IMG/VR virus record: IMGVR_UViG_3300021387_000700
Direction: 5' to 3' (one strand)
DNA from: a virus
Length of the DNA stretch: 64,000 nt
Shown here: positions 4,560 through 56,396 of the stretch, piece by piece
Layout: the number at the start of each line of letters is the position of its first letter
Position numbering within the stretch: position 1 is the stretch's first letter
The notes under the pieces: generated by a model
Database searches by the model: none
What the model was told of the DNA's origin: nothing
The model's input: only the letters and a program-made list of their open reading frames with translations
Made by a program: the position numbers and the translations under genes

Positions 4560-5078
4560 ATGGCAAAGACACGGTTCAAATTCAACGGAAAGCTTTGGGG
4601 TAAGCGTTTGTTCAATAGCGTTGCCGAGGAGCAGACCAAGCGGCTTATAGAGTACGCTGAAAAGGAAATCGTGAATATCGTGGAGAATGCGTCTTTTGAC
4701 AATGAGACTTTCAACTTATCCGACTCCTACGTATGGTGTGTGTACTTTAACGGAAAGCGCAAGGGCTACGGCACTTATGGGCGCAAGCAGGCGAGGAAAA
4801 ACTCCTTACTGCACGAATACAGCCCATCTATCAGCGTTCCCGTGAAAGGTCGCCAATTGGCCAATGATTTTGCAAAGGCTTACAAGCCAGACCAAGACAA
4901 AGGCTGGGAAATAGTTTTTGCCGCCACAGCACCCTACGGTGCATATATGGAAGAGGGTTACACCTTTAAGGGCAAGTTCTATAAGTTCCATGTTCTTTCG
5001 CAGCGGTACGACCACATCAAGAAAGCTCTTAGTCCGCTTTGTGTAGTAACACTTGAAATTGATACGCCTAAATATTAA
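4560..5078 (+). CDS. putative head-tail joining / neck protein
   Basis: 172 aa. Call is positional only. Confidence 0.3.
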   Translation: MAKTRFKFNGKLWGKRLFNSVAEEQTKRLIEYAEKEIVNIVENASFDNETFNLSDSYVWCVYFNGKRKGYGTYGRKQARKNSLLHEYSPSISVPVKGRQLANDFAKAYKPDQDKGWEIVFAATAPYGAYMEEGYTFKGKFYKFHVLSQRYDHIKKALSPLCVVTLEIDTPKY

Positions 5079-5083
5079 GCACG

Positions 5084-5530
5084 ATGATTACGGATTCGTC
5101 ACGCATACCGATATATGATTTCCTTTCGGAGATTCTTGCAGGTGTCACGGATAACATCTATTCCATGACATTGCCTACGGAAACTACGAAATCGGACATC
5201 GAGGACGGTTTTATCGTTACCAATGTCGGCAATATCAATGATGATTCCGAGTTTGATGGCGACGCTTACGGCTGGGTTCGCTGCACGGTTACGGCCTACA
5301 TATCCAAAAAGACTCGCGGGCGTTTGAATAAGACGCTTTACGATGCCTACGATAAGGGTATTACAGCGGCCATAAAAGCCCACACGGGGCGCGTTGATGA
5401 GGGCGACTACTACATCTTAGAGGATAGCGTTCTCTCGATGGATGATAACGAGAATACGGTAAAGGGAAACCAATACCATGCTTTCATAAAATCCTTTGTC
5501 GTCGTAATAGACCAACAAAGTAATTCGTAA
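5084..5530 (+). CDS. putative tail completion/terminator protein
   Basis: 148 aa, immediately upstream of the major tail gene. Call is positional only. Confidence 0.3.
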   Translation: MITDSSRIPIYDFLSEILAGVTDNIYSMTLPTETTKSDIEDGFIVTNVGNINDDSEFDGDAYGWVRCTVTAYISKKTRGRLNKTLYDAYDKGITAAIKAHTGRVDEGDYYILEDSVLSMDDNENTVKGNQYHAFIKSFVVVIDQQSNS

Positions 5531-5559
5531 CTAATTAAAATAAAGAAAGGAAACAAATT

Positions 5560-6093
5560 ATGGCAAAAAAGACAACTTTGAAGCCGATTGGCCTTGGCTA
5601 TCGCGCTGTTGGTTCTGCCTCAAGTGTGGCTTATACCAAGTTCATGGGTGTTTTGAAAGGACTGGCTATCGCGCAGGACGAGCCCGAATCTACCGAGATT
5701 GAGGCCGAGTTCTACGATGCACCTTTCGACATCTTCTATCAAGGTAATCCCGTGCGTCTGACCTTTGAGCTGGCAAACTACGATTTGTCGGAGCTGCCTG
5801 CCATCTTCGGTGGTACTTATACTGCTGGTTCTGCTGGCACTGGTGGTGCTGCTGGTACTCCCGAATCATACGAGGGTGCTGCATCCGCATACACCTCAGA
5901 GCAGGAGTGGAAGCTCGACTTCGGTCGCGGCTTTGGTTCGCTGGTTATCTACAAGGGTCTAACCGTTGGTACTCTCAAGAAGGATGCCGACGGTGCTTTG
6001 AACTATTCGGTAACTATTACCGCTTTGGTTTACACCGACGCAGACCAAGTTGACCACATGTATAAGATTATCGGCGACACCCCCACCGAGTAG
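5560..6093 (+). CDS. putative major tail protein
   Basis: 177 aa, directly upstream of the frameshifted chaperone pair and the tape measure. It has the strong GAAAGGAAACA start context. Confidence 0.5.
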   Translation: MAKKTTLKPIGLGYRAVGSASSVAYTKFMGVLKGLAIAQDEPESTEIEAEFYDAPFDIFYQGNPVRLTFELANYDLSELPAIFGGTYTAGSAGTGGAAGTPESYEGAASAYTSEQEWKLDFGRGFGSLVIYKGLTVGTLKKDADGALNYSVTITALVYTDADQVDHMYKIIGDTPTE

Positions 6094-6227
6094 TCCAAGC
6101 ATGGCAATTCTAACGTTTTCGTGAACGTGAGGGGTGCGTTGTTGGGGTGTCCCCGATGATGCGCCCCTTTGCTTTACGAAATGCCGTTAGAATCAAAATA
6201 AACTACGTTCACGAAAAAAGTTATATT

Positions 6228-6842
6228 ATGGCAAAGGAAAACGAGAACAAGCAGGTAGCGCAGGAGCAAGAGGAGATAAAGGATTTTCCAATTGACATCC
6301 AAAAAAACATCGTTGAGATAATCAATGATACGCCATCCTTGATACGCCTTGGTGATAAGGAGTATAAGGTAAAGGGTATGCGCTATTATTCGTTGTACCG
6401 TATATGCAACCTTGTATTAGATATGCGTAAGGCTGATGAAACGTTAGATACTGACCAAAAGGTTATAACTGCCTTGTGTACCGATTTGGATGCCATGTGT
6501 GAAATCATGGCCATTGTGCTTTGCAATCACCTTTTCACTCCCGACGGGAACAATCTTACTTGGGAGGAGGTTCGCACAAAGAACGACTACTATGTAAGCG
6601 TTATGAAGGCAAAGGTCATGCAGAGCACATTTGATGCAAACCAATGGGCGGCAATTGTGCTGGGCGCAATAAAATCAATAGATTTATCCGCTTTTTTTTT
6701 ACTCAAAAAATCGGTGAGTACGCTTACGGGTTCACTTCTGATGCGGAAGAAGAAATCGGAGGAGACAGCATCACTATTTATGGAAGCACTATCATTGCAG
6801 ATGCAGCAGACTTCCTCAGAGCCTTCCCACAATACCGATTAG
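6228..6842 (+). CDS. tail assembly chaperone (G-like, zero-frame product)
   Basis: Canonical position between major tail and tape measure. I prefer ATG 6228 (MAKENENK...) over the GTG at 6147 given in the track. Confidence 0.65.
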   Translation: MAKENENKQVAQEQEEIKDFPIDIQKNIVEIINDTPSLIRLGDKEYKVKGMRYYSLYRICNLVLDMRKADETLDTDQKVITALCTDLDAMCEIMAIVLCNHLFTPDGNNLTWEEVRTKNDYYVSVMKAKVMQSTFDANQWAAIVLGAIKSIDLSAFFLLKKSVSTLTGSLLMRKKKSEETASLFMEALSLQMQQTSSEPSHNTD

Positions 6843-17296: not shown

Positions 17297-19441
17297 TTAG
17301 AATGGTGCATCACCATCAATAGGGGGTGCAAACGGCATATCGCCTACTGCATAGGGCGCATCGCTCTGTTCAGAATACACCTCCACACGTTCGCTTTCAT
17401 TAAAGGACATCGTACCTTGAACGGGCTCAGCCTCCCAGCCGTAGTGTATATTCTCATCGGGCGTATTCTTGAAACGGCGGCTTTCGAGCTCATAGTGCAA
17501 GCCTACCAGCACATCACAAACGCCATACATACGGTTTTTGGATATTTCCACCACGTTTCCAAAGCATGAATAACGCTGTATCTGCGACTGCCCGTAGAAC
17601 TCCGCGCCAGCCTTTAGGAAATCTTGGTTTACACGGTGTGCGATAAACACGTTATCAACGGCGTTTGTAAGGTCGGCAGTTCCCGATATATCGGCCTTAC
17701 GCAAGAAAGCCAATGATTTACGCGGGTGTGCAACAATGATAATATGAACGTTGTTTGTCTTTGCGAAATCCTTCAATTGCAGGATAAGGTTTTTCTGCTT
17801 ATTGTTCTTGTCGCCCTCCAGCAGGTCTATATCCAATGCCATAAGATTGTCAAGAATAAACACTTTCACGCCAGCCTTCAAAAGCTCCTTCATGTCGTGA
17901 AAGACCTCCTCCCATGTGTTGCCGTATTCGTTATTGAAAAGGAAGAACTTACCGTCCATCCAATCGTCGATGCGCTTTGCTATATTGTTCGGCACGAAAT
18001 ACTTTCCGTCGCCGTATTGGGATAGTTTAAGATTCTCCTTTCCTGCGGCCACCATCTGAATCCACGCCTTTAGGATATGTGCTGGCAGCTCGCCGCTGAA
18101 CAATGCGCTCGGTGCGCCCTGCTGCAAGAAATTACATATAAGCGTATTCAAAAGCGAGGATTTTCCCGATGCGTTACCGCCCGAAAGCAAAGTAACCTCA
18201 CACTCGGCCAACCCAAGGAGCAGTCGGTCTATTTCATTAATGCCCGTCTTGATACGCGGGATAGATGATAAGTCCACCTTTTGAATATCACTCATGCAAA
18301 GCCATTTCTTACCCAATTCGGGCAATTCCTCCTTTATCTGATAGCGGGGCTTTTGCGGGGCATAGATGCGGGGTGCATACTGCGGCTGATAGGCAGGACG
18401 GTCATAGGCCGTTGGCTCATAGAACAAACGTACATCATGCCATGTCTTGTCCTTGCAATGGCTGTGCGTGCAGTTGAACGTGATTTTACCGTCGTTGTCA
18501 ACAAACAATGCGCTATCCCATTTCTTGCGGTCGCTATGCGTATCTACCCAAGGGCAGTACTCAAGCTCATAAATGGTGCTTGTGCCGCTTTTCTTTTCGC
18601 GATACTTAATGCCGTGCTCGTTAAGCCACGTAACCAAATCAAACGGGGTGTTATTGCCTTGATACTGCGGCCTGCGGTTGGGAGCTACCTTTGGCTCTTC
18701 CTTTGGCAGCAGGTCGGCTATCTTTTGGAATAGCGCATCATCATTGGGCGACAAATCGGCTGGCACTTTCACGATTTCGGCAATACGCCATTTTCGGTCG
18801 GGCGTATCTGAGCCTTTCTTAGCCCATGTGCCTATAAGCTTGTCGATGCGGGCAGGGTTAAAAACCTTCTCGTCAATCTCCACGCTCGCGTCAGAAAACA
18901 TCTTTGACAGCGACTGCAAGAAACGCTTAACAAGCTCGTTATGCTCTTCGTCGTTAGGCATATCACACGGGAGATACACATGCCAGCCGTTTCCCGATTT
19001 CGTGATTATCGGCTCTTTGAATCCAGCACCGATAAGATAGCGGAACACATCAACGGCCTTTAGGTGTGCTTTCTCAAACTCATCATCGCTTGCGCTGATG
19101 CCAGCGGCACGGCTTGGGTCGAGGTCTATAAGCACCATGCGCCGACGGGTAATATCGCCATCGTTTGTCGTTGACTTCGGCTTCTTTACGAATGTGTCGT
19201 GCTGCTCACGGCTGTATAGCGCATCATTGATTTCGTTGAGCGTGAAATATGCCTGCATCGCGCCGTAATACTGATAGTTGTTGTGGTCTAACAACGGGCG
19301 CAATTGCGCAATAAGCGTATCAATATCGCGAAAGTAGCCGCTGTATGCCGCCTTACCAAGCAGTCGTATCTCAACGAGCTTTCCCTGCGGGTTGAACAGC
19401 TGCCACCATTTCCTTATTTGGCCTTCGTTAATTTCGTACAT
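17297..19441 (-). CDS. bifunctional primase-polymerase (AEP/PrimPol) fused to DnaB-like/RecA-fold helicase
   Basis: 714 aa. AEP motifs VLIDLDPSR (DxD) and SGNGWHVYL are present, with a Cys/His cluster CTHSHCKDKTW. The helicase part has Walker A GGNASGKSS and Walker B VFILDNLMALD. Confidence 0.8.
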   Translation of the reverse strand: MYEINEGQIRKWWQLFNPQGKLVEIRLLGKAAYSGYFRDIDTLIAQLRPLLDHNNYQYYGAMQAYFTLNEINDALYSREQHDTFVKKPKSTTNDGDITRRRMVLIDLDPSRAAGISASDDEFEKAHLKAVDVFRYLIGAGFKEPIITKSGNGWHVYLPCDMPNDEEHNELVKRFLQSLSKMFSDASVEIDEKVFNPARIDKLIGTWAKKGSDTPDRKWRIAEIVKVPADLSPNDDALFQKIADLLPKEEPKVAPNRRPQYQGNNTPFDLVTWLNEHGIKYREKKSGTSTIYELEYCPWVDTHSDRKKWDSALFVDNDGKITFNCTHSHCKDKTWHDVRLFYEPTAYDRPAYQPQYAPRIYAPQKPRYQIKEELPELGKKWLCMSDIQKVDLSSIPRIKTGINEIDRLLLGLAECEVTLLSGGNASGKSSLLNTLICNFLQQGAPSALFSGELPAHILKAWIQMVAAGKENLKLSQYGDGKYFVPNNIAKRIDDWMDGKFFLFNNEYGNTWEEVFHDMKELLKAGVKVFILDNLMALDIDLLEGDKNNKQKNLILQLKDFAKTNNVHIIIVAHPRKSLAFLRKADISGTADLTNAVDNVFIAHRVNQDFLKAGAEFYGQSQIQRYSCFGNVVEISKNRMYGVCDVLVGLHYELESRRFKNTPDENIHYGWEAEPVQGTMSFNESERVEVYSEQSDAPYAVGDMPFAPPIDGDAPF

Positions 19442-27041: not shown

Positions 27042-27392
27042 ACGGCTTTTATTGTGCTGGGTATATAATTACTATATTTGCAGGCTTTTAACGCTGTGTC
27101 GGGCTTTAAAACATGCTTAAAACGAATTATTTGCATTTTTGCTATATATACGCGCATATTCATATTATAAATAAATAATGCAATAATCCAGCATTTTTGC
27201 ACCCGCTTATAAAATAGGCTTTTAACATTTTAAGTTATTGATTTTCAAGCAGTTACAAACTTTTGTAATTAGTTTTCATCATAAAAAGTGTTTCATTTGT
27301 TAATTTAATAGGCTTTTCATGCTTATATAATAAATAAAGGTTAAAAAAATAACTTTTTAGGCTTAAAAGTTTGGTATATAAAAATATATTTG

Positions 27393-27400
27393 TACCTTTG
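27393..27400 (+). promoter_or_regulatory. rightward promoter: TTTGGTATAT...-N-...TACCTTTGCACC
   Basis: The -33-like TTTG lies at 27370-27373 and the -7 box at 27393-27400. The layout is nearly identical to the promoters at 38291-38326 and 50707-50741. Confidence 0.55.
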
Positions 27401-27899
27401 CACCAGCAAAACGATAGAACGGCAGGCGGAAGCCACATAGCGGACAGGGGTCGTTTGCGGGCGAGGAAAAAGCCTCGACCTATCTTTGCAAGTTTGGGCA
27501 ATATATACGCAGTAAGTTGACAGCCCGAAGACTACAAAGGGAAATAGGACGAGCACATTATCCCGAAAACTTGCATTTACTTGTTAGCGTGCAAAGTTTT
27601 GACCCAGTCACCTAATAAGGAATTAAAAAGAATAGTTAGGGCTTTAAATAGTAACATTGATATTTAAAACAAAGGGCTGTTAATTGCATGATGTTTCAAT
27701 GAATTGCAAACAAGCAAATAACTCACTATTTTGTATTTTTGTGCAGGGTATTTAGCACTGGGAACAGAATCTATTTTGCACATACATAAATACTTGCAAA
27801 TAGGCAGATTAATTGCACCCGCAGGAAATTGACAACTAATAGGGCAAAATGAAAAACCGAATTTTTGCAGCCTTCAAATATAATCCACTTTATTTATTA

Positions 27900-34437: not shown

Positions 34438-35304
34438 ATGAAACAATTCGTTATTTATATTCGTGTATCAACACGAAAGCAGGGTGCAAGCGGATTAGGC
34501 TTGGAAAGCCAGCGCAAGATATGTACCGAACTTGTTAAATCAAAGGGCGGTGATGTTGTTGCAGAATTTAAGGACGTGGAAAGCGGTACGCACCGTGACA
34601 GAAAAGGTCTGCTGGCAGCGGTTGACTATTGCAAGAATAATAATTGCGCATTGGTTATCGCAAAGTTAGACCGCCTCGCCCGTGACGTGGAGTTCTGTTT
34701 CAAGGTAGTCAACACGGGTATAGATATTCACTTTGCGGATATGCCGACCATCAATACGCTTTTGCTTGGCGTGTTTGCATCTGTGGCGCAGTACGAAAGG
34801 GAACTTACCAGCGACCGCACGGTCAAAGCTTTGGCAGCAAAGAAGGCACGCGGCGAAAAGACTGGCGGCGCAAGCGACGCATGGATTGAGAACTACAACA
34901 AGAAGTCAAATATAGAAAAGCATGAGATTGGAATGAGAAGAGGAGCAACAAAGAACGAAAGACATCTTTTAAGCCGTGATGTGCAGGCGTTCATCAAGGC
35001 TTTGCGTAGCGTGTTCCCCGATGCCTGCAAGGGCGATGTAACCGAGTGGGATTTTAGCGCGATAAACACAAAGGAAACCTCACGTATCAAGCTGTTATCA
35101 TTGATGCGTGATTACAAGGAACTTGATAACACGTTATTTGCAAAGTGGGATTTATCGGGCGACGATTTATCCGCAAGACCTTTGCAGGTAAAATTGGCCG
35201 CACAGATTCAGTCTTTAAGAAACTCAGTCAAGAAACTCAATGAAAACAAAGACAACGAAAAAGGCGATGCGCTTTTGTGTGACTATGGAACGGGAATTGA
35301 CTAA
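34438..35304 (+). CDS. serine recombinase (resolvase/invertase-type catalytic domain)
   Basis: 288 aa. FVIYIRVSTRKQGASGLGLESQR contains the YxRVSTxxQ nucleophile motif, followed by LVIAKLDRLARD. The C-terminal half is not a recognisable HTH_7. Confidence 0.8.
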   Translation: MKQFVIYIRVSTRKQGASGLGLESQRKICTELVKSKGGDVVAEFKDVESGTHRDRKGLLAAVDYCKNNNCALVIAKLDRLARDVEFCFKVVNTGIDIHFADMPTINTLLLGVFASVAQYERELTSDRTVKALAAKKARGEKTGGASDAWIENYNKKSNIEKHEIGMRRGATKNERHLLSRDVQAFIKALRSVFPDACKGDVTEWDFSAINTKETSRIKLLSLMRDYKELDNTLFAKWDLSGDDLSARPLQVKLAAQIQSLRNSVKKLNENKDNEKGDALLCDYGTGID

Positions 35305-37794: not shown

Positions 37795-37998
37795 ATGGCA
37801 AAGAAAATGATTAAGTTTACGGATAAGAACACGGGTACTTCACTCGAGATTCTTGTCGGCAGCTTGGGGCAGCATGTTTACAAGCTGACTAAAAGCGTTA
37901 ATGAAATGAACGATGCTATCCGCTGGTGCAACCACCATGAGGTCGGCGAAAAGTTCGACTGCGAGCAGTATTCCTTGGAAATCATTAGTGTTGGCTGA
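37795..37998 (+). CDS. hypothetical small protein
   Basis: 67 aa. Confidence 0.4.
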   Translation: MAKKMIKFTDKNTGTSLEILVGSLGQHVYKLTKSVNEMNDAIRWCNHHEVGEKFDCEQYSLEIISVG

Positions 37999-38000
37999 AT

Positions 38001-38189
38001 ATGGCGCATGTACTTACGGATGCACAATTGGAGGCCATCTGTGAACGGTCTCCCGATTGTGGTTGTAACTGCGCTCGCTGCGAAGCTTTCGCGGCAAACG
38101 TGCGGTACAATAACGGCGACTATGAAAATGATTCCAACTCCGATGATGATGAGGAAGATTGGGATGATGGCTACGGGACGCAATGGTGA
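38001..38189 (+). CDS. hypothetical small Cys-rich, very acidic protein
   Basis: 62 aa with CGCNCARCEAF followed by DYENDSNSDDDEEDWDDGYGTQW. Confidence 0.4.
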   Translation: MAHVLTDAQLEAICERSPDCGCNCARCEAFAANVRYNNGDYENDSNSDDDEEDWDDGYGTQW

Positions 38190-38314
38190 AAAGCTATGGC
38201 ATTGGTTATCATCCTTATCTGCGCGATTTGGTGTATCGGCAGGATATATCGGCAATGGTAAGTTAAGATAGGTTAAATTTTGGCTTATTGTTTGGTATAT
38301 TAAAATATTCATCG

Positions 38315-38322
38315 TACATTTG
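38315..38322 (+). promoter_or_regulatory. rightward promoter TTTGGTATAT...TACATTTGCACC
   Basis: The -33-like TTTG lies at 38291-38294 and the -7 box at 38315-38322. It is a near copy of the 27393 promoter. Confidence 0.55.
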
Positions 38323-38329
38323 CACCGTG

Positions 38330-38840
38330 AAACAAGTGTTGCAGGCTTGTGTATCGGTAAGAATTGGGAAACTTTTATCACAAACCCCCTATATTCGGCA
38401 ATACCCCTATCTTGTGCTGCAACCACTTGATAGGGGATTCCTTTTATGGGGGGTTTCCTTTTTCACGAAACGGCATTTGAACGTCGCCAAGAAAGGATTT
38501 GCTGAAACGTGATAAAAGTAAGCAATATCGGTCACACCTCGATGTCGTGGATAAAGCTACCAAGAGGGGAACGTACTAAGGTAGCAAGTGCGGGTACGCC
38601 TTATCGGTGTTACGCTGGCTTGTACGACCGAAAGCAAATCGGGAACAGCGTATATCAATGGTATTTGCAATCCTGCCATTGTGTGTGAAGCGAGGGGCTC
38701 TAAGGGGGTCGTCTATGATTCATCGCAAAGCACAAAACCAAAGGCTGATAAAACGGCTTTTAGGGAATATTGTGCTTTCTTAGGGATAAGTAGGGTTTCT
38801 ATAATTTTTTTAGGCTGGAATATAATAATTTTATTAATAT
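38330..38840 (+). ncRNA. candidate structured non-coding RNA or long structured leader upstream of RNase H
   Basis: About 0.5 kb with no credible ORF and its own promoter. Nested helices are AAACCCCC(38383-38390)/GGGGGGTTT(38448-38456) and CCCCTATC(38404-38411)/GATAGGGG(38429-38436). Further stems are CAATGG/CCATTG (~38657/38676) and CGTAC/GTACG (38571/38594). TAGGG repeats lie at 38760-38800. Confidence 0.35.
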
Positions 38841-39302
38841 ATGGACTACGATTTTATTGTTTATACAGACGGTGGCTATTCGCAGAAAGCGAATGTAGGT
38901 GCTTTCGCCTACGTTATATGTGATGGCCGATGCAATGAGATAAAACGTGGCGCATGGCGGGCAGAGCATGAAACAAACAACCGCATGGAACTAAAAGCCA
39001 TTATTGCAGCCCTGCACCACATACCAGCAACAAACGTAAGTGTTCTTGTGCGTTCCGATTCACAATACGCATTATACACGCTAAACAAGTCATGGTCACG
39101 CAAGACTAACACCGACCTTTTCCCTATTCACGACAAAATCGTTGCAGAAAAGAATCTTGATGTTACATACGAATGGGTGAAAGGTCACAGCGGCAACAAG
39201 TTCAATGAGATTTGCGACCAGCTATGCAGCGAGGCCGCAGGCGTGGACTTAAATGCCGAGTATGAGTTCTATAAGCAATTGAAAAAGAATAAAAAGCAAT
39301 AA
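38841..39302 (+). CDS. ribonuclease H (RNase HI-like), copy 1
   Basis: 153 aa with YTDGG, ETNNRMELKAI, SDSQYA and WVKGHSGNKFNEICDQLC, giving the DEDD catalytic pattern. Confidence 0.8.
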   Translation: MDYDFIVYTDGGYSQKANVGAFAYVICDGRCNEIKRGAWRAEHETNNRMELKAIIAALHHIPATNVSVLVRSDSQYALYTLNKSWSRKTNTDLFPIHDKIVAEKNLDVTYEWVKGHSGNKFNEICDQLCSEAAGVDLNAEYEFYKQLKKNKKQ

Positions 39303-39681: not shown

Positions 39682-40116
39682 ATGCACTATCTTCTTTATA
39701 CCGACGGGGCATATTTCCCCGAACATGAGCGCAGTTCCATTGCTTACGTGATGATACAAGCAGTACCAAAAAGAGAGGTGCGCCGCCTACATCAGACCGT
39801 AAAGGGCGAAACCAGCGGGCGTGCGGAGCTGAAGGCCATCATAAGTGCCGTGTACGCTTTACCCGAAGATGCCGATAGCTGCACCGTCATAAGCGACTCG
39901 AAATATGCGCTTGATGCTTGCAGTAAACGCTGCATACGATACAAGAATACGGATTTGCTTAACCTCTTTGATAACATCATTGAGTCGCGTGGCCTTTCGG
40001 TAACGTATTCTTGGGTAAAATCCCACAACGGGAACTTTTACAATGAGCTTTGTGACTCTTTATGCCAGCAGGCAATAAACGAATACATTAACAACAAAAA
40101 CAAAGAAAACGTATGA
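39682..40116 (+). CDS. ribonuclease H (RNase HI-like), copy 2
   Basis: 144 aa with YTDGA, ETSGRAELKAI, SDSKYA and WVKSHNGNFYNELCDSLC. Confidence 0.8.
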   Translation: MHYLLYTDGAYFPEHERSSIAYVMIQAVPKREVRRLHQTVKGETSGRAELKAIISAVYALPEDADSCTVISDSKYALDACSKRCIRYKNTDLLNLFDNIIESRGLSVTYSWVKSHNGNFYNELCDSLCQQAINEYINNKNKENV

Positions 40117-43350: not shown

Positions 43351-44220
43351 ATGGCAGAAGAAAAGAAAGCTACGGGATTGAAATTGTTCAATCAAACAAT
43401 CACCAACCCGTCAACACAAAAGTATCTCTCAGATGTTCTTGGCGAGCGCAAGGGTTCATTCGTAAATAACCTTACTGCGCTTGTGGCAAACAACGCCATG
43501 TTGCAGGATTGCGAGCCTTACACGCTTATGTTTGCGGCTATGAAGGCTACAGCCTTGAACTTGCCGCTTGACAACTCACTTGGATTTGCATACGTTTTGC
43601 CTTACAAGGATAACAAGAAAGGCATTACGGTAGCGCAGTTCCAATTGGGCTACAAGGGTGTTAAGCAGCTGGCATTGCGAAGCGGTTCGTTCGCTACCAT
43701 TCCCAACGCCACCGACGTCCGTGAGGGCGAGCTTATCAGCCGCAACCGCTTGACTGGCGAGTGTAAATTCAACTTCATAGAGGATGCCGATGAGCGCGAA
43801 TCTAAACCCGTTATAGGATTTGTTTCGTATTTCAAGCTCCTTAACGGCGCAGAATCCACATTCTACATGTCGCTCAAGGAGATGGAAAAGCACGCCCTGC
43901 GTTATTCACAGACCTACCGTTCAAAGGATAGCCGCATCAAGGCTGCATCAAAATGGACGACGGACTTTAACGACATGGCCTGCAAGACGGTTGTTAAGCT
44001 GAATCTTTCAAAGAACGCCCCGCTATCCGTAGAGATGCAGGATGCCTTGAAAGCAGACCAAGCAATCATGTATGAGCGTGACAAGTACGAATACTTGGAT
44101 AACGAGCAGACGGAGGTCGATATGGCAAAGGCGCAGGCCGTAGCCGAAAAATTCGCTGGTTTCGATAACGCAGAAGATGTGACCGACCAAGGTGACGGTA
44201 ATGCTAACGGTAATAAATAA
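43351..44220 (+). CDS. recT: RecT-family single-strand annealing recombinase
   Basis: 289 aa. ...FAAMKATALNLPLDNSLGFAYVLPYKD...AQFQLGYKGVKQLALRSG is typical of the RecT core. Confidence 0.7.
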   Translation: MAEEKKATGLKLFNQTITNPSTQKYLSDVLGERKGSFVNNLTALVANNAMLQDCEPYTLMFAAMKATALNLPLDNSLGFAYVLPYKDNKKGITVAQFQLGYKGVKQLALRSGSFATIPNATDVREGELISRNRLTGECKFNFIEDADERESKPVIGFVSYFKLLNGAESTFYMSLKEMEKHALRYSQTYRSKDSRIKAASKWTTDFNDMACKTVVKLNLSKNAPLSVEMQDALKADQAIMYERDKYEYLDNEQTEVDMAKAQAVAEKFAGFDNAEDVTDQGDGNANGNK

Positions 44221-49435: not shown

Positions 49436-49708
49436 ATGGAACTTTTACAACAACTTCAAGAATTGGCATTGTGCCTGCTGGTTTGGTATATCATACCAAC
49501 GGCAATATGCGTTATCTTTGCTTTCGTGTATCACCACGAAAACCCGTTTAAGAAAGATAACACGAATACACGTACCTATGTGTTTGCACCCGTAGCAAAC
49601 ATCGGTATCGCTCTTATTATCATTTTTGCGCTTATCCCAATGGAGGCGTATTGGTTCATCAGAAAGAAAATAAAAAAGTTCATATCATGGAAGAAAAGGG
49701 AATTTTAG
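49436..49708 (+). CDS. hypothetical membrane protein
   Basis: Start at ATG 49436, with two hydrophobic helices. Confidence 0.4.
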   Translation: MELLQQLQELALCLLVWYIIPTAICVIFAFVYHHENPFKKDNTNTRTYVFAPVANIGIALIIIFALIPMEAYWFIRKKIKKFISWKKREF

Positions 49709-50451
49709 AGCTAAAGGAATCATCGGTTATCGCCGACGATATTGAAAAGAAAATACGTACCGTCGGCGTTCGCGGCCTTGATTTCGAGAAGGCAAAGGAG
49801 CTTGGCCTCTTTAACCGTATATCAAATCTGCTTTGTGCCACACATGCAAGTGTTATGGCCGCTTACCGCATATACGGTGGTGTTGATTATCTTGTAGACC
49901 AGCTTCAAGCCCGCAAGAATGAAATATCGCGGGAAATGAATATGTTCGACAAGGCTTTCGAGCGTTTCGTAAAGTTTTGGACTGACTATTATGCACACGG
50001 TGATGCTGCACGCGAGGTAAACGAAGAGACAGAGATGCTTTATCGTCGTATCATGGAATGGGCGCAGCTGCCTTATAAATGGGGACTTGGTGACCCGCAG
50101 CGCACAGAGGATAACAGCCTTGATGTCGCCATCCGCGTAAACGCCGATGATAAGCAGTACACATTCAGAACTACAACTATCGGCGACGAGGATATTGACG
50201 AATCTAAGACAACAGAGTCTTGGTGCGTTACAAAATACGATACCAAGGAGCATCGTCAAACAACCGTCGAGGAACGTATGGATAAGGCATCGGCCATGAT
50301 GGTTGCAAAACGCCTTTCGGCAGAGGATGCGGAAAATATCTATACCGCCAGCATAGTGCGTGACTACACGGAGCACAAGACGGTTATTATGCCATACAAG
50401 GCTTATAAAGCTAACGAAACCGTAGGACGTCTAACCAAAATGCAGAAATAA
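49687..50451 (+). CDS. hypothetical protein
   Basis: Start taken at ATG 49687 (MEEKGILELK...), 254 aa. Confidence 0.5.
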   Translation: MEEKGILELKESSVIADDIEKKIRTVGVRGLDFEKAKELGLFNRISNLLCATHASVMAAYRIYGGVDYLVDQLQARKNEISREMNMFDKAFERFVKFWTDYYAHGDAAREVNEETEMLYRRIMEWAQLPYKWGLGDPQRTEDNSLDVAIRVNADDKQYTFRTTTIGDEDIDESKTTESWCVTKYDTKEHRQTTVEERMDKASAMMVAKRLSAEDAENIYTASIVRDYTEHKTVIMPYKAYKANETVGRLTKMQK

Positions 50452-50686: not shown

Positions 50687-50729
50687 CGTTAAAGTATATA
50701 AAATATTTGGTATATTACAAATTACTTTG

Positions 50730-50737
50730 TATCTTTG
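50730..50737 (+). promoter_or_regulatory. rightward promoter TTTGGTATAT...TATCTTTGCACC
   Basis: The -33-like TTTG lies at 50707-50710. It has the same architecture as the 27393 and 38315 promoters. Confidence 0.55.
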
Positions 50738-50770
50738 CACCGTTGTTTAATTCATTAAAAACGTTACAAT

Positions 50771-54372: not shown

Positions 54373-54435
54373 CCCTATCTGTGTTAAATAAGTGTTAAAG
54401 ATTTTATTTTCCTTTGTATATCCAAAAGAAAGTAT

Positions 54436-54627: not shown

Positions 54628-54700
54628 CGCGGGGTGGAGCAGTTGGCAGCTCGCAAGGCTCATATCCTTGAGGTCGCAGGTTCGAGTCCTGCCCACCGCA
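54628..54700 (+). tRNA. tRNA-Met-like (anticodon CAU), initiator-like, atypical acceptor stem
   Basis: CGCGGGG-TG-GAGC-AGTTGGCA-GCTC-G-CAAGG-CTCATAT-CCTTG-AGGTC-GCAGG-TTCGAGT-CCTGC-CC(A)CCGCA. The D, anticodon and T arms are perfect. The acceptor pairs only if A54695 is bulged, and C1xA72 mismatches as in bacterial initiators. Confidence 0.6.
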
Positions 54701-54738
54701 ACAAAAACTTTCTTTGGCATACTGATTAATAAACGGAT

Positions 54739-54812
54739 TGCTCCATAGCGCAATTGGTCAGAGCATCAGAATTTGGGTCTGAGGGTTGCACGTTCGAGTC
54801 GTGCTGGGGCAA
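54739..54812 (+). tRNA. tRNA-Gln (anticodon UUG)
   Basis: Acceptor is TGCTCCA/TGGGGCA with U1-A72. The anticodon arm is TCAGA-ATTTGGG-TCTGA and the T arm is GCACG-TTCGAGT-CGTGC. Confidence 0.85.
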
Positions 54813-54817
54813 CAAAT

Positions 54818-54894
54818 GGGGTTTTAGCTCAGTTGGTTAGAGCATCTGCTTTGCAAGCAGAGGGTCGTGAGTTCGAGTCTCACATTCTCCACCA
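54818..54894 (+). tRNA. tRNA-Ala (anticodon UGC), CCA encoded, two U-U mismatches in the acceptor stem
   Basis: GGGGTTT-TA-GCTC-AGTTGGTTA-GAGC-A-TCTGC-TTTGCAA-GCAGA-GGGTC-GTGAG-TTCGAGT-CTCAC-ATTCTCC-ACCA. G3:U70 is present, and pairs 5-68 and 6-67 are U-U. Confidence 0.75.
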
Positions 54895-54900
54895 TGATAC

Positions 54901-55210
54901 GGGGGTATTTTGGTTTTGATTGTAGATGGATGGTAAGAAATCGTGCAAGCAATCATGCTTTGAAATGGTAAAAACAATAAATGCTAAGGTTGTCAATATG
55001 ACTCCCCGTGCTCAAGTGCTGGCAGCAGCCGCATAAGCACCTCGCTGGTGACTTGCGAAGGAACATAAAAGTTACGGCTCGTTTTCTCCGTTTTCTCAAA
55101 ACGTAGTGGTGGAACGCTCGTCCAAGTTATAAAAGCTGGTCAGCCCCGACGCACGTAACAAGTTTCTATGATAAATCTGCAAGACGAGGGTTCGACTCCC
55201 TCTACCTCCA
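54901..55210 (+). ncRNA. ssrA: tmRNA (ssrA-like)
   Basis: The 5' GGGGGTA pairs with the 3' TACCTCC(A), including G3:U70. The T arm is GAGGG-TTCGACT-CCCTC. TTGTAGAT near the 5' end pairs with ATCTGCAA near the 3' end (P2). An internal frame ...GCT AAG GTT GTC AAT ATG ACT CCC CGT GCT CAA GTG CTG GCA GCA GCC GCA TAA ends in an Ala-rich tag. Confidence 0.8.
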
Positions 55211-55241
55211 CTTGAATATTTTATTTTTAATCATAAGAAAG

Positions 55242-56396
55242 ATGAGTAGAATTAAATTTAATGTTGATGAATGGCTACCCCGCTTATCGCAAGTTGTAGG
55301 CGTAGTTAATTCAAAAAATCCCCTGCCTATCCTTGGCGACATCTTAATCAAAACAGACATGGAAGCCCAAAGGGGGCTTACGTTCACAGCCAGCGATTCG
55401 GAAACATGGCTCACCATCGAAGCACCACATCTTAGCTTTGACGATAGCTTTGAAATCTGCATCGCTGCCGTTGACTTCTACAAGGCATTATGCAATCTGA
55501 AAGGAAAGCAGGTTTGTATGACATTGGATGCCGAGCATCACACCGTAGAATGTGATTACGGTAATGGCCGTTTTACGATGGCCTACGAGGATGCTACAGA
55601 ATATCCAAAGCCAAATATGGATGCCAGCGATTCACAAAGCAAGGTTATCGACGCTGATAAGCTGCTTTACGCGGTAAATAAGCCCGATTACGCCACAGCT
55701 AACGATGAGTTACGCCCCGTAATGAATGGCATACGCCTTGAGTTCTTTGCAGATGGTATGGTAGCCGTTGCAACCGACGGTCACAAGCTTGCAAAGTTCA
55801 AGGATTTGTCTATCATTCCCGAAGGCGATAACGTGGAGGTTTGTGGTTTCACATTACCAAAGAAACCTGCTGGAGTGCTGCGTAATCTGCTTAATCAGTT
55901 CGGTGGCGATGTAAGCATAACCTTTAACGACAGATGCGCCACATTCGCAATTGCCGATTGCTTTACATTGAACACCCGTCTTATCGAAGGCCGTTATCCC
56001 AATTATGAAAGTGTTATCCCAAGGGAAAATACCATCGTTGCCACTATTGACAAGGCCGCTTTCATTGCTGCCATGAAACGTGTGCTGCCGATGAGTAACG
56101 CATCAAGCGAGCTTATCAGCTTTAAGTTTACGATGGGTAACATGGAGATTAGCGCAGAGGACTACGATTTCAGCCGCGCCGCAAGCGAAAACATTTCCTG
56201 CGACTATGCCAGCCCCGACCTACAGATTGGATTTAAGGGCAGCGTGATTATGGCCGTTCTGCAAAGCATTGATGATGATTCCGTAAAGGTCTACTTGAAG
56301 GATTCCATGCGTGCAGGCGTATTCATGCCAGCTACGCAAAAGGATAATACGTCGTATCTTGCGCTTGCAATGCCGATGCTTATTCAAGACAAATAA
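55242..56396 (+). CDS. dnaN: DNA polymerase III beta sliding clamp
   Basis: Start at ATG 55242. MSRIKFNVDEWLPRLSQVVGVVNSKNPLPILGDILIKTD parallels the DnaN N-terminus (...PILGNLLL...). At 384 aa it has the size of a three-domain clamp. Confidence 0.8.
   Translation: MSRIKFNVDEWLPRLSQVVGVVNSKNPLPILGDILIKTDMEAQRGLTFTASDSETWLTIEAPHLSFDDSFEICIAAVDFYKALCNLKGKQVCMTLDAEHHTVECDYGNGRFTMAYEDATEYPKPNMDASDSQSKVIDADKLLYAVNKPDYATANDELRPVMNGIRLEFFADGMVAVATDGHKLAKFKDLSIIPEGDNVEVCGFTLPKKPAGVLRNLLNQFGGDVSITFNDRCATFAIADCFTLNTRLIEGRYPNYESVIPRENTIVATIDKAAFIAAMKRVLPMSNASSELISFKFTMGNMEISAEDYDFSRAASENISCDYASPDLQIGFKGSVIMAVLQSIDDDSVKVYLKDSMRAGVFMPATQKDNTSYLALAMPMLIQDK

Follow-up and report, generated by a model that had tools for sequence, protein, structure and literature searches.

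A predicted two-module structured RNA family at the head of an RNase H operon in cattle-rumen phages

A 64,000-nt stretch of viral DNA (IMG/VR record IMGVR_UViG_3300021387_000700; called the window here, at its full length) specifies, on its + strand, what comparative analysis indicates is a structured, functional RNA family new to Rfam. We place the probability of this reading at roughly 95%. The predicted RNA is about 470 nt long, promoter driven, and composed of two separable modules, a 5' leader and a core. It would be the 5' part of the transcript of an RNase H/SSB/RecT operon. No known family or described system matches it in sequence, fold, or architecture, and the novelty lies both in the RNA family and in the architecture of the locus.

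New large, intricately folded bacterial and phage RNAs are rare. RNase P, the group I and group II introns, OLE, ROOL, and GOLLD each opened new biochemistry. The comparative support here is unusually clean for so few sequences: a lineage-specific 7-bp loop pair, a four-state pseudoknot, and 282 invariant nt. The RNA belongs to phages that are abundant in the cattle rumen, and, whatever its function, the family lends itself to structure determination and to inclusion in Rfam.

Locus, promoter, and gene context

The source phage has a length of about 84 kb, and its nearest relative, IMGVR_UViG_3300028797_000148, is 97% identical. In bovine and other rumen metagenomes, 152 data blocks contain RNase H proteins identical to its own. 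The features that frame the RNA are the following.

38001-38189: 62-aa gene that adjoins the gap on its upstream side, with its stop at 38189
38196-38261, + strand: micro-ORF of 21 codons with an ATG start (MALVIILICAIWCIGRIYRQW), directly 3' of the 62-aa gene
38291-38322, + strand: Bacteroidota-type promoter from a pattern scan, with a -33 element TTTG at 38291-38294 and a -7 element TACATTTG at 38315-38322
38779-38840, + strand: AT-rich spacer between the 3' hairpin of the RNA and the RNase H start codon, with TAGGG repeats in this lineage
38841-39302, + strand: RNase H gene 1 (Pfam RNase_H, E=3e-24), predicted to be co-transcribed 3' of the RNA
39682-40116, + strand: RNase H gene 2 (Pfam RNase_H, E=7e-19)

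The original prediction, made from the letters of the window, described the interval between 38189 and 38841 as free of ORFs. This description holds from 38262 to 38840, where the only ORFs start at non-ATG codons (ORFs of 58-111 codons are among them), but not at the left end, which the 21-codon micro-ORF occupies. The product of the micro-ORF, MALVIILICAIWCIGRIYRQW, is predicted to form a single hydrophobic helix. Its frame is retained, with amino-acid changes, in 11 close relatives, and a counterpart, MGFLVILIAVIYIIGRVYKQW, is present in lineage L013 and absent from L024 and L034. The micro-ORF is outside the RNA.

The promoter conforms to the Bacteroidota type that the source phage uses (TTTG ... 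TAnnTTTG). A full promoter had been proposed at this position, and its conservation upstream of every homologue of the RNA bears this out, as do the coordinates of its two elements. Near-identical units, TTTGGTATAT...TTTGCACC, are likewise found where they had been reported elsewhere in the window, at 27370 and 50706. The base composition of the ORF-free segment is ordinary, again as noted earlier (GC 0.38-0.49). The RNA has a positive GC skew of +0.14 to +0.28, and G-tracts lie toward its 3' end. In all lineages, a spacer of 66-100 nt that is 75-86% A+T separates the RNA from the next gene. The TAGGG repeats to which the original prediction drew attention near the 3' end do exist, at 38760-38795, but they are no general feature of the family: they recur only in lineage L078, and the other lineages carry UCAARGUUCAAA instead. 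A search for an intrinsic terminator between the RNA and RNase H found no such site. Thus, the RNA is literally a long structured 5' segment of the transcript. No internal direct repeats occur in the region, and no copies of it occur elsewhere in the window; internal repeats or a template resembling that of a DGR were therefore rejected as candidates.

Placement of a structured RNA immediately before RNase H paralogs had been regarded as an unusual pairing. RNase H does follow the RNA in at least five lineages (the window, L024, L051, L056, and L064). In L058 and L054, other genes follow (a DUF559-type or other protein; a 458-aa protein and a 114-aa protein). Because related phages carry protein genes in the same slot before RNase H, the pairing is not specific, and the RNase H adjacency is inherited gene order.

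In relatives that lack the core, the leader is followed by winged-helix proteins or by other ORF-free segments. Two families of winged-helix proteins fill the place between the shared leader and RNase H, one in L034, L049, and L020, the other in L015, L048, and L053. PHROG searches return weak, recurrent matches of these proteins to a DnaD-like loader (2e-8) and to replication initiation or O-like proteins (~6e-6), and the matches cover only generic HTH stretches. A PDB sequence search with the same proteins was uninformative, and the window encodes no homologue of them. The other ORF-free segments that follow the leader are 300-400 nt long (L013/L022, L079, and L081), and at least two to four unrelated ORF-free cargos follow this same leader. 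The surrounding genes encode the two RNase H proteins, SSB, RecT, a GNAT acetyltransferase, a serine recombinase, a primase-polymerase/DnaB-like helicase, and a beta-clamp. The locus is mosaic: in relatives, its cargo ranges from HNH and DUF559 endonucleases to a Ro60 cassette and further ORF-free segments.

A covarying fold without a conserved reading frame

Homologues were sought in contigs carrying RNase H homologues of 50-83% identity and by a degenerate-motif scan of IMG/VR and JGI metagenomes. Seven further lineages with the core RNA emerged (L024/L043, L051/L052, L056, L064, L058/L065, L054/L061, and L078), so the core is present in at least eight lineages of cattle-rumen phages, the window included. 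The divergent homologues are ~60-76% identical to the RNA of the window. In L056, the flanks are 94-97% identical to those of the window, and the RNA variant differs. BLAST searches of the GenBank phage collection in distant and near modes gave no match to the region or to the 18 kb around it. Exact-pattern scans of IMG/VR (with a 33-mer, GACCGAAAGCAAATCGGG, and CCAAGAGGG...CTAAGGTAG) returned only two known contigs and chance coding matches. A scan of GTDB genomes gave chance matches only, L071 and L066 included, with no Rfam family among them, so the RNA was not found in these bacterial genomes. A search of the literature found no description of this RNA.

The original prediction recognized no known RNA class here, and the Rfam 15 check agrees, with no match to the RNA in the window or in any homologue. 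Across the window, the Rfam 15 search finds a tmRNA and three tRNAs (54629-55213) and nothing in the region of interest. When 37900-39100 was searched with E values up to 10, only microRNA and snoRNA models appeared (E>=5, 14-16 bits versus cut-offs of 44-100). Five other family members, together with L056 and L058, likewise gave no match to the large RNA. The classes without a match include ROOL, GOLLD, HEARO, OLE, raiA, group I and II introns, RNase P, 6S, SRP, tmRNA, YrlA, and riboswitches.

Thermodynamic and comparative measures both point to a fold. The MFE z-score for 38325-38840 is -3.6 relative to shuffled controls. The consensus fold, obtained with RNAalifold from seven lineages, comprises 67 pairs in 13 helices, and 31 of these pairs show double (compensatory) changes; when the 3' partners are slid by 1-3 columns, only 5-10 pairs do. 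Similarly, 89.6% of cells are paired as observed, versus 35-41% in the slid controls. None of 500 shuffles reached the observed values, and 6 of 500 did so when pair types alone were scored. Addition of L078 to the alignment retained the main helices. The + strand folds with a consensus energy of -114.9 versus -91.8 for the - strand over the whole RNA, and of -92.3 versus -71.9 over the core, and two G-U pairs are invariant on the + strand. One pairing offered by RNAalifold, a long-range match of a 5' CACC with GGUG, is weak; the local P0 helix fits better.

The leader consists of these elements.

38323-38464, + strand: 5' leader module with P0, P1, and P2 (MFE z-score -4.55 for 38323-38470)
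38324-27 with 38355-58, + strand: P0
38332-37 with 38345-50, + strand: P1, whose 7-nt loop X is GUUGCAG (38338-44)
38382-93 with 38445-56, + strand: outer stem of P2
38404-11 with 38429-36, + strand: inner stem of P2, whose 7-nt loop X' is CUGCAAC (38417-23)

P2 is a long, covarying hairpin, and GUG/CAC closes its apical 7-nt loop. Loops X and X' are perfectly complementary (7/7) in all 11 lineages first examined, with a different heptamer in each. Three more lineages, obtained from a leader-motif scan, bring the total to 14, and their loops are likewise complementary. When loops from different lineages are paired with one another, only ~4 of 7 positions match. When each sequence is folded independently, both heptamers fall in apical loops in 9 of 11 cases. 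To judge from this pattern, the two hairpin loops of the leader can form a 7-bp kissing interaction whose sequence is lineage specific. The leader also occurs without this core, in L013, L020, L022, L028, L034, L079, and L081. In L034 and L020 it runs directly up to the start codon of a protein gene, and there at least the leader module is thus a genuine 5' UTR element.

The core consists of these elements.

38465-38792, + strand: core RNA module, ~330 nt, with at least eight helices and a covarying pseudoknot
38470-76 with 38542-48, + strand: helix Ha
38557-61 with 38580-84, + strand: P5, a hairpin stacked on P6
38585-89 with 38618-22, + strand: P6
38572-76 with 38622-26, + strand: pseudoknot between the P5 loop and the bases just after P6
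38596-600 with 38606-10, + strand: core hairpin
38628-31 with 38639-42, + strand: core hairpin
38656-61 with 38676-81, + strand: core hairpin
38727-35 with 38770-78, + strand: long 3' hairpin

The pseudoknot exists in four compensating versions, CGUAC:GUACG in the window and GCAC:GUGC, CCC(G):GGG, and GAGC:GCUC in other lineages. Lineage L051 has the core with no leader; the core is an autonomous multi-helix, pseudoknotted module. Several helices had been proposed by eye. The nested pair AAACCCCC/GGGGGGTTT enclosing CCCCTATC/GATAGGGG is real and covaries, CGTAC/GTACG proves to be the covarying pseudoknot, and CAATGG/CCATTG is 100% paired with double changes in five of its six pairs. The proposed GTTTC/GAAAC helix is not part of the consensus fold, in which those bases belong to other elements. 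Three features go beyond what had been claimed for this segment: its division into two modules, the covarying complementarity of the two 7-nt loops, and the invariant run of 282 nt in the core.

Population data locate the strongest constraint in the core. In an alignment of the window with 10-11 contigs that encode an identical RNase H protein, spanning 6.4 kb, positions 38465-38747 (282 nt) are fully invariant among these close relatives. This is the longest invariant run in the 6.4 kb (the runner-up is 102 nt), and the core coincides with it. In the same relatives, the neighboring RNase H gene has 5-7 silent variable sites per 100 nt; identity of the RNase H protein was the criterion by which the contigs were selected, yet its silent sites vary. 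Close relatives also differ by 1-nt indels in homopolymer runs at ~38386, 38455, and 38461, which rules out coding in the 5' part. Indels among the divergent homologues are not multiples of three, and these homologues share no reading frame: translated similarity consists of short patches that switch frame and strand. Neither a conserved frame nor the mostly silent variation expected of a protein-coding gene is present in 38262-38840. A conserved coding frame in homologous phages, the result named beforehand as telling against an RNA, was looked for and not found. In sum, with homologous intergenic regions in hand and covariation strong (31 pairs with double changes), no conserved frame, and no Rfam match, the evidence supports the original suggestion of a novel promoter-driven structured noncoding RNA or regulatory leader.

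Possible roles

We tentatively propose, by analogy and at rather less than even odds, that the core RNA acts in the initiation of phage DNA replication. The proposal stems from two observations: in relatives, the leader precedes initiator-like winged-helix genes, and the locus lies inside a replication/recombination module. The absence of a terminator, the G-tract-rich 3' part, and the AT-rich stretch after the RNA also guided the choice. The notion is that the core RNA would be a folded pre-primer or R-loop-forming RNA, like ColE1 RNA II. At the AT-rich stretch that follows, the 3' part of the RNA, with its many G-tracts, would stay hybridized, and RNase H would then cut the RNA back to a primer. 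The kissing loops, different in each lineage, would serve the leader as a switch of fold or specificity. Consistent with such a role, winged-helix, initiator-like proteins occupy the slot in L015, L048, L049, L034, L020, and L053, and the window has no counterpart of them. The two RNase H genes, SSB, and RecT are neighbors, the 75-86% AT spacer follows the RNA in every lineage with no terminator, and the RNA has the positive skew of +0.14 to +0.28 and the G-tracts described above.

Several observations weigh against a replication role. The cumulative GC-skew minimum and a 2.5-kb, promoter-dense region of 29-31% GC lie at 25-28 kb. That region is the more conventional candidate for an origin or control region; GC skew places the probable origin at ~26 kb and shows no inflection at 38.5 kb. 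RNase H also adjoins the slot in relatives where a protein fills it, and it is not adjacent in L058 and L054. The matches of the winged-helix proteins to initiator families are weak and limited to generic HTH stretches. Since this mosaic locus is a hotspot at which unrelated cargo accumulates, replacement in position need not imply replacement in function. There is no antisense promoter like that of ColE1 RNA I, and a pseudoknotted core constrained nucleotide by nucleotide exceeds the apparent needs of a primer.

One leader is coupled in some phages to DNA-binding proteins and in others to different structured RNAs, an arrangement suggesting that the two kinds of molecule may be interchangeable for one step of the phage cycle. 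A stronger form of the replication proposal, which we regard as improbable, is that a folded RNA has replaced a protein initiator in a dsDNA phage lineage. In this form, a leader with a lineage-specific 7-bp kissing "address" would couple either to an initiator gene or to one of several unrelated structured RNAs that do the same job of specifying or priming the origin. If so, RNA would have taken the place of protein in replication initiation in a system other than the ColE1 plasmid family.

The RNA could instead be a processed, trans-acting structured noncoding RNA unrelated to replication, such as a scaffold, a decoy, an anti-defense RNA, or a self-assembling ornate RNA, a possibility that we also hold at less than even odds. 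The RNA would merely use a strong early promoter and a variable accessory slot. The autonomy of the core, found without the leader in L051 as the leader is found without the core elsewhere, fits this idea, as do the strong constraint on the pseudoknotted core and the mosaic locus with its unrelated cargo, at least two to four ORF-free kinds of which follow the leader. RNA-level functions are at home in these phages (the tmRNA and tRNAs of the window; the Ro60 and YrlA-like cassette beside the RNA in L056), and the complementary loops could also act between molecules. However, searches identified no partner, target, or terminator, and without a terminator, processing would be required. No known decoy or anti-defense RNA in Rfam matches, and the frequent winged-helix, initiator-like alternative cargo is left unexplained.

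A less probable but live alternative is a role in cis for the RNA, as a 5' UTR that regulates the RNase H/SSB/RecT operon by riboswitch-like sensing, processive antitermination, or mRNA stabilization. The RNA begins at the transcription start and directly precedes the operon with no terminator before RNase H, and in L034 and L020 the leader abuts the start codons of proteins. Against it stand the size of the core (~330 nt, at least eight helices) and the spacer of 66-100 nt, which is AT-rich, not conserved, and without conserved alternative pairing to the start region. Moreover, the downstream gene varies by lineage among RNase H, the 458-aa protein, and the 114-aa protein, and no known riboswitch model matches. 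The hallmarks of a riboswitch or cis-regulatory leader, a sensor with an expression platform and a consistent gene set, were not seen.

Far less probable is a DNA-level element (an iteron origin, a packaging site, or a recombination site) or a recent selfish insertion, with the invariance reflecting a sweep. An element of this kind would fit the complete lack of variation over 282 nt in one population, the homing-endonuclease genes close by in relatives, and the mosaic locus, but divergent lineages keep the pairing through double substitutions and strand-specific G-U pairs, and folding clearly favors the + strand over the - strand. Internal direct repeats are absent from the region, which interrupts no host gene, and with complete flanking genes and no match to an intron model, the region does not resemble a self-splicing group I or group II intron. 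Least credible of all is that the gap encodes one or more small proteins: the 58-111-codon non-ATG ORFs and the variable ORFs that gene callers placed here in some relatives are outweighed by the frame-shifting indels between close relatives, by the lack of silent-site variation in the core when flanking genes have it, by similarity patches that change frame and strand between lineages, and by ORF calls that vary from contig to contig. The DNA-element, selfish-insertion, and coding explanations are largely excluded.

Comparison with known systems

ColE1-type plasmids replicate from an RNA II pre-primer that is controlled through kissing with RNA I and processed by RNase H. The phage RNA resembles RNA II as a promoter-driven RNA of ~500 nt at a locus with no initiator protein gene: here, a promoter at 38291-38322 precedes ~470 nt of RNA reaching to the AT-rich spacer, and the window encodes no homologue of the winged-helix proteins. 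Both systems have 7-nt hairpin loops whose full complementarity makes them kissing partners, both have an AT-rich stretch after a G-rich RNA, and both have a connection to RNase H. Unlike in ColE1, both complementary loops are on the same strand and in the same transcript. A minus-strand search within the RNA found neither a -33/-7 promoter nor a lone -7 box from which an RNA I-type antisense RNA could start. There is no sequence similarity, the phage core is pseudoknotted, and GC skew points to another origin region.

In the repZ leader of IncI-alpha and IncB plasmids, a hairpin loop pairs with a distal stretch, and the partners co-vary between related replicons. Analogously, initiator-like winged-helix genes follow the phage leader with its kissing loops in L034, L020, and L028. 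In contrast to repZ, no leader peptide or antisense RNA was seen at the phage locus, the distal partner is in a second hairpin loop and not beside a start codon, and the leader in the window is followed by an RNA, not by a rep gene.

ROOL and GOLLD are similar to the phage RNA in their length of several hundred nt, their many helices, and their occurrence in phages and rumen samples. Their assemblies are built by intermolecular kissing loops (bioRxiv 10.1101/2024.12.08.627333). The phage RNA differs in that it does not match RF03087 or RF01998, is preceded by Bacteroidota-type promoters, indicative of different hosts, and is not located beside tRNAs.

A further parallel is with YrlA and Ro60. 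In L056, a TROVE/Ro60 gene is immediately upstream of the RNA. Directly upstream of this gene, in turn, lies a YrlA-like element of its own (L056 5075-5152, E=0.005); this element explains the Ro60 partner and speaks against a Y RNA identity of the large RNA. Ro60 adjacency is confined to L056, the window has no Ro60 gene, and the large RNA matches no YrlA or Y RNA model; a Y RNA identity was thus rejected.

Finally, in the phi29 pRNA, two mutually complementary loops co-vary between related phages as the remaining sequence drifts, and the phage RNA described here likewise has a mutually complementary, covarying loop pair. The pRNA, however, is ~170 nt long, has 4-nt loops, and lies at the genome end beside packaging functions, whereas the loop pair here is in a leader that also precedes protein genes and lies within a replication module. 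ColE1, the IncI-alpha leader, ROOL and GOLLD, and the phi29 pRNA each share only single features with the phage RNA.

Segments that follow the leader in other phages

In other phages, the 5' leader of the RNA, with its two complementary kissing loops, is followed by different ORF-free segments, located as follows:

L013, 2124-2512: ORF-free segment after the leader
L022, 1950-2272: ORF-free segment after the leader
L079: ORF-free segment of 300-400 nt after the leader
L081: ORF-free segment of 300-400 nt after the leader

The L013 and L022 segments have in common a 39-nt block with 85% identity, and the L013 segment has a folding z of -2.8. Those of L079 and L081 are unrelated by sequence. These four segments may represent further RNA classes that occupy the same slot, that is, the place between the leader and the RNase H gene.

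Genes inserted or retained around the RNA locus

Free-standing HNH and DUF559-type endonuclease genes are also present around the locus in relatives of the window phage:

L013, 2513-2986: endonuclease gene
L034, 1947-2447: endonuclease gene
L051, 2431-3297: endonuclease gene
L058 and L054: endonuclease gene 3' of the RNA

Their insertion points vary among the relatives. These enzymes are likely homing endonucleases, and their scattered insertions are consistent with a recombination hotspot at the RNA locus. A different cassette, at 5075-6657, is carried by L056 (Ga0265300_10000121), which is related to the window phage in a mosaic fashion. The cassette encodes a TROVE/Ro60 protein (Pfam TROVE, 1e-15; PHROG 850, 6e-40), and a sub-threshold YrlA-like element (E=0.005) lies just 5' of that gene. 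The insertion point of the cassette is immediately 5' of the RNA promoter.

In the window, upstream of the RNA, lies one further small frame:

38196-38261: hydrophobic micro-ORF of 21 codons, directly 3' of a 62-aa gene

The product of the 62-aa gene is acidic and Cys-rich. The micro-ORF is retained in close relatives and in L013, and it has no counterpart in L024 or L034.

Replication genes, translation RNAs and promoters of the window phage

Elsewhere in the window, the following features were identified:

17297-19441 (-): primase-polymerase/DnaB-like helicase fusion
34438-35304 (+): small serine recombinase (resolvase domain)
43351-44220 (+): RecT
54629-55213: tRNA-Met, tRNA-Gln and tRNA-Ala, then directly a tmRNA (Rfam, 67.7 bits)
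27370-27404 and 50706-50741: two more copies of the promoter TTTGGTATAT...TTTGCACC

AKVVNMTPRAQVLAAAA is the tag peptide that the phage tmRNA specifies; near the cluster, at 54413, there is a promoter unit, and a beta-clamp gene comes after the tmRNA, at 55242. The phage appears to depend on a host polymerase plus its own clamp. Among the scanned window ORFs there is no reverse transcriptase; a 254-aa ORF (49687-50451) gives a weak, below-cut-off match to GIIM, the group II intron maturase-specific domain (E=0.002).

A G-rich, non-AUG stretch (AGCAAAACGATAGAACGGCAGGCGGAAGCC...) comes after the promoter copy at 27370. Promoter-like units of the TTTGCACC type are numerous between 25000 and 28000, together with AT-rich repeats. 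Here, a 2.5-kb ORF-poor stretch (GC 29-31%) coincides with the cumulative GC-skew minimum and with the point at which gene orientation changes between leftward and rightward. This stretch is likely the origin or control region, and it is possibly a source of small transcripts.
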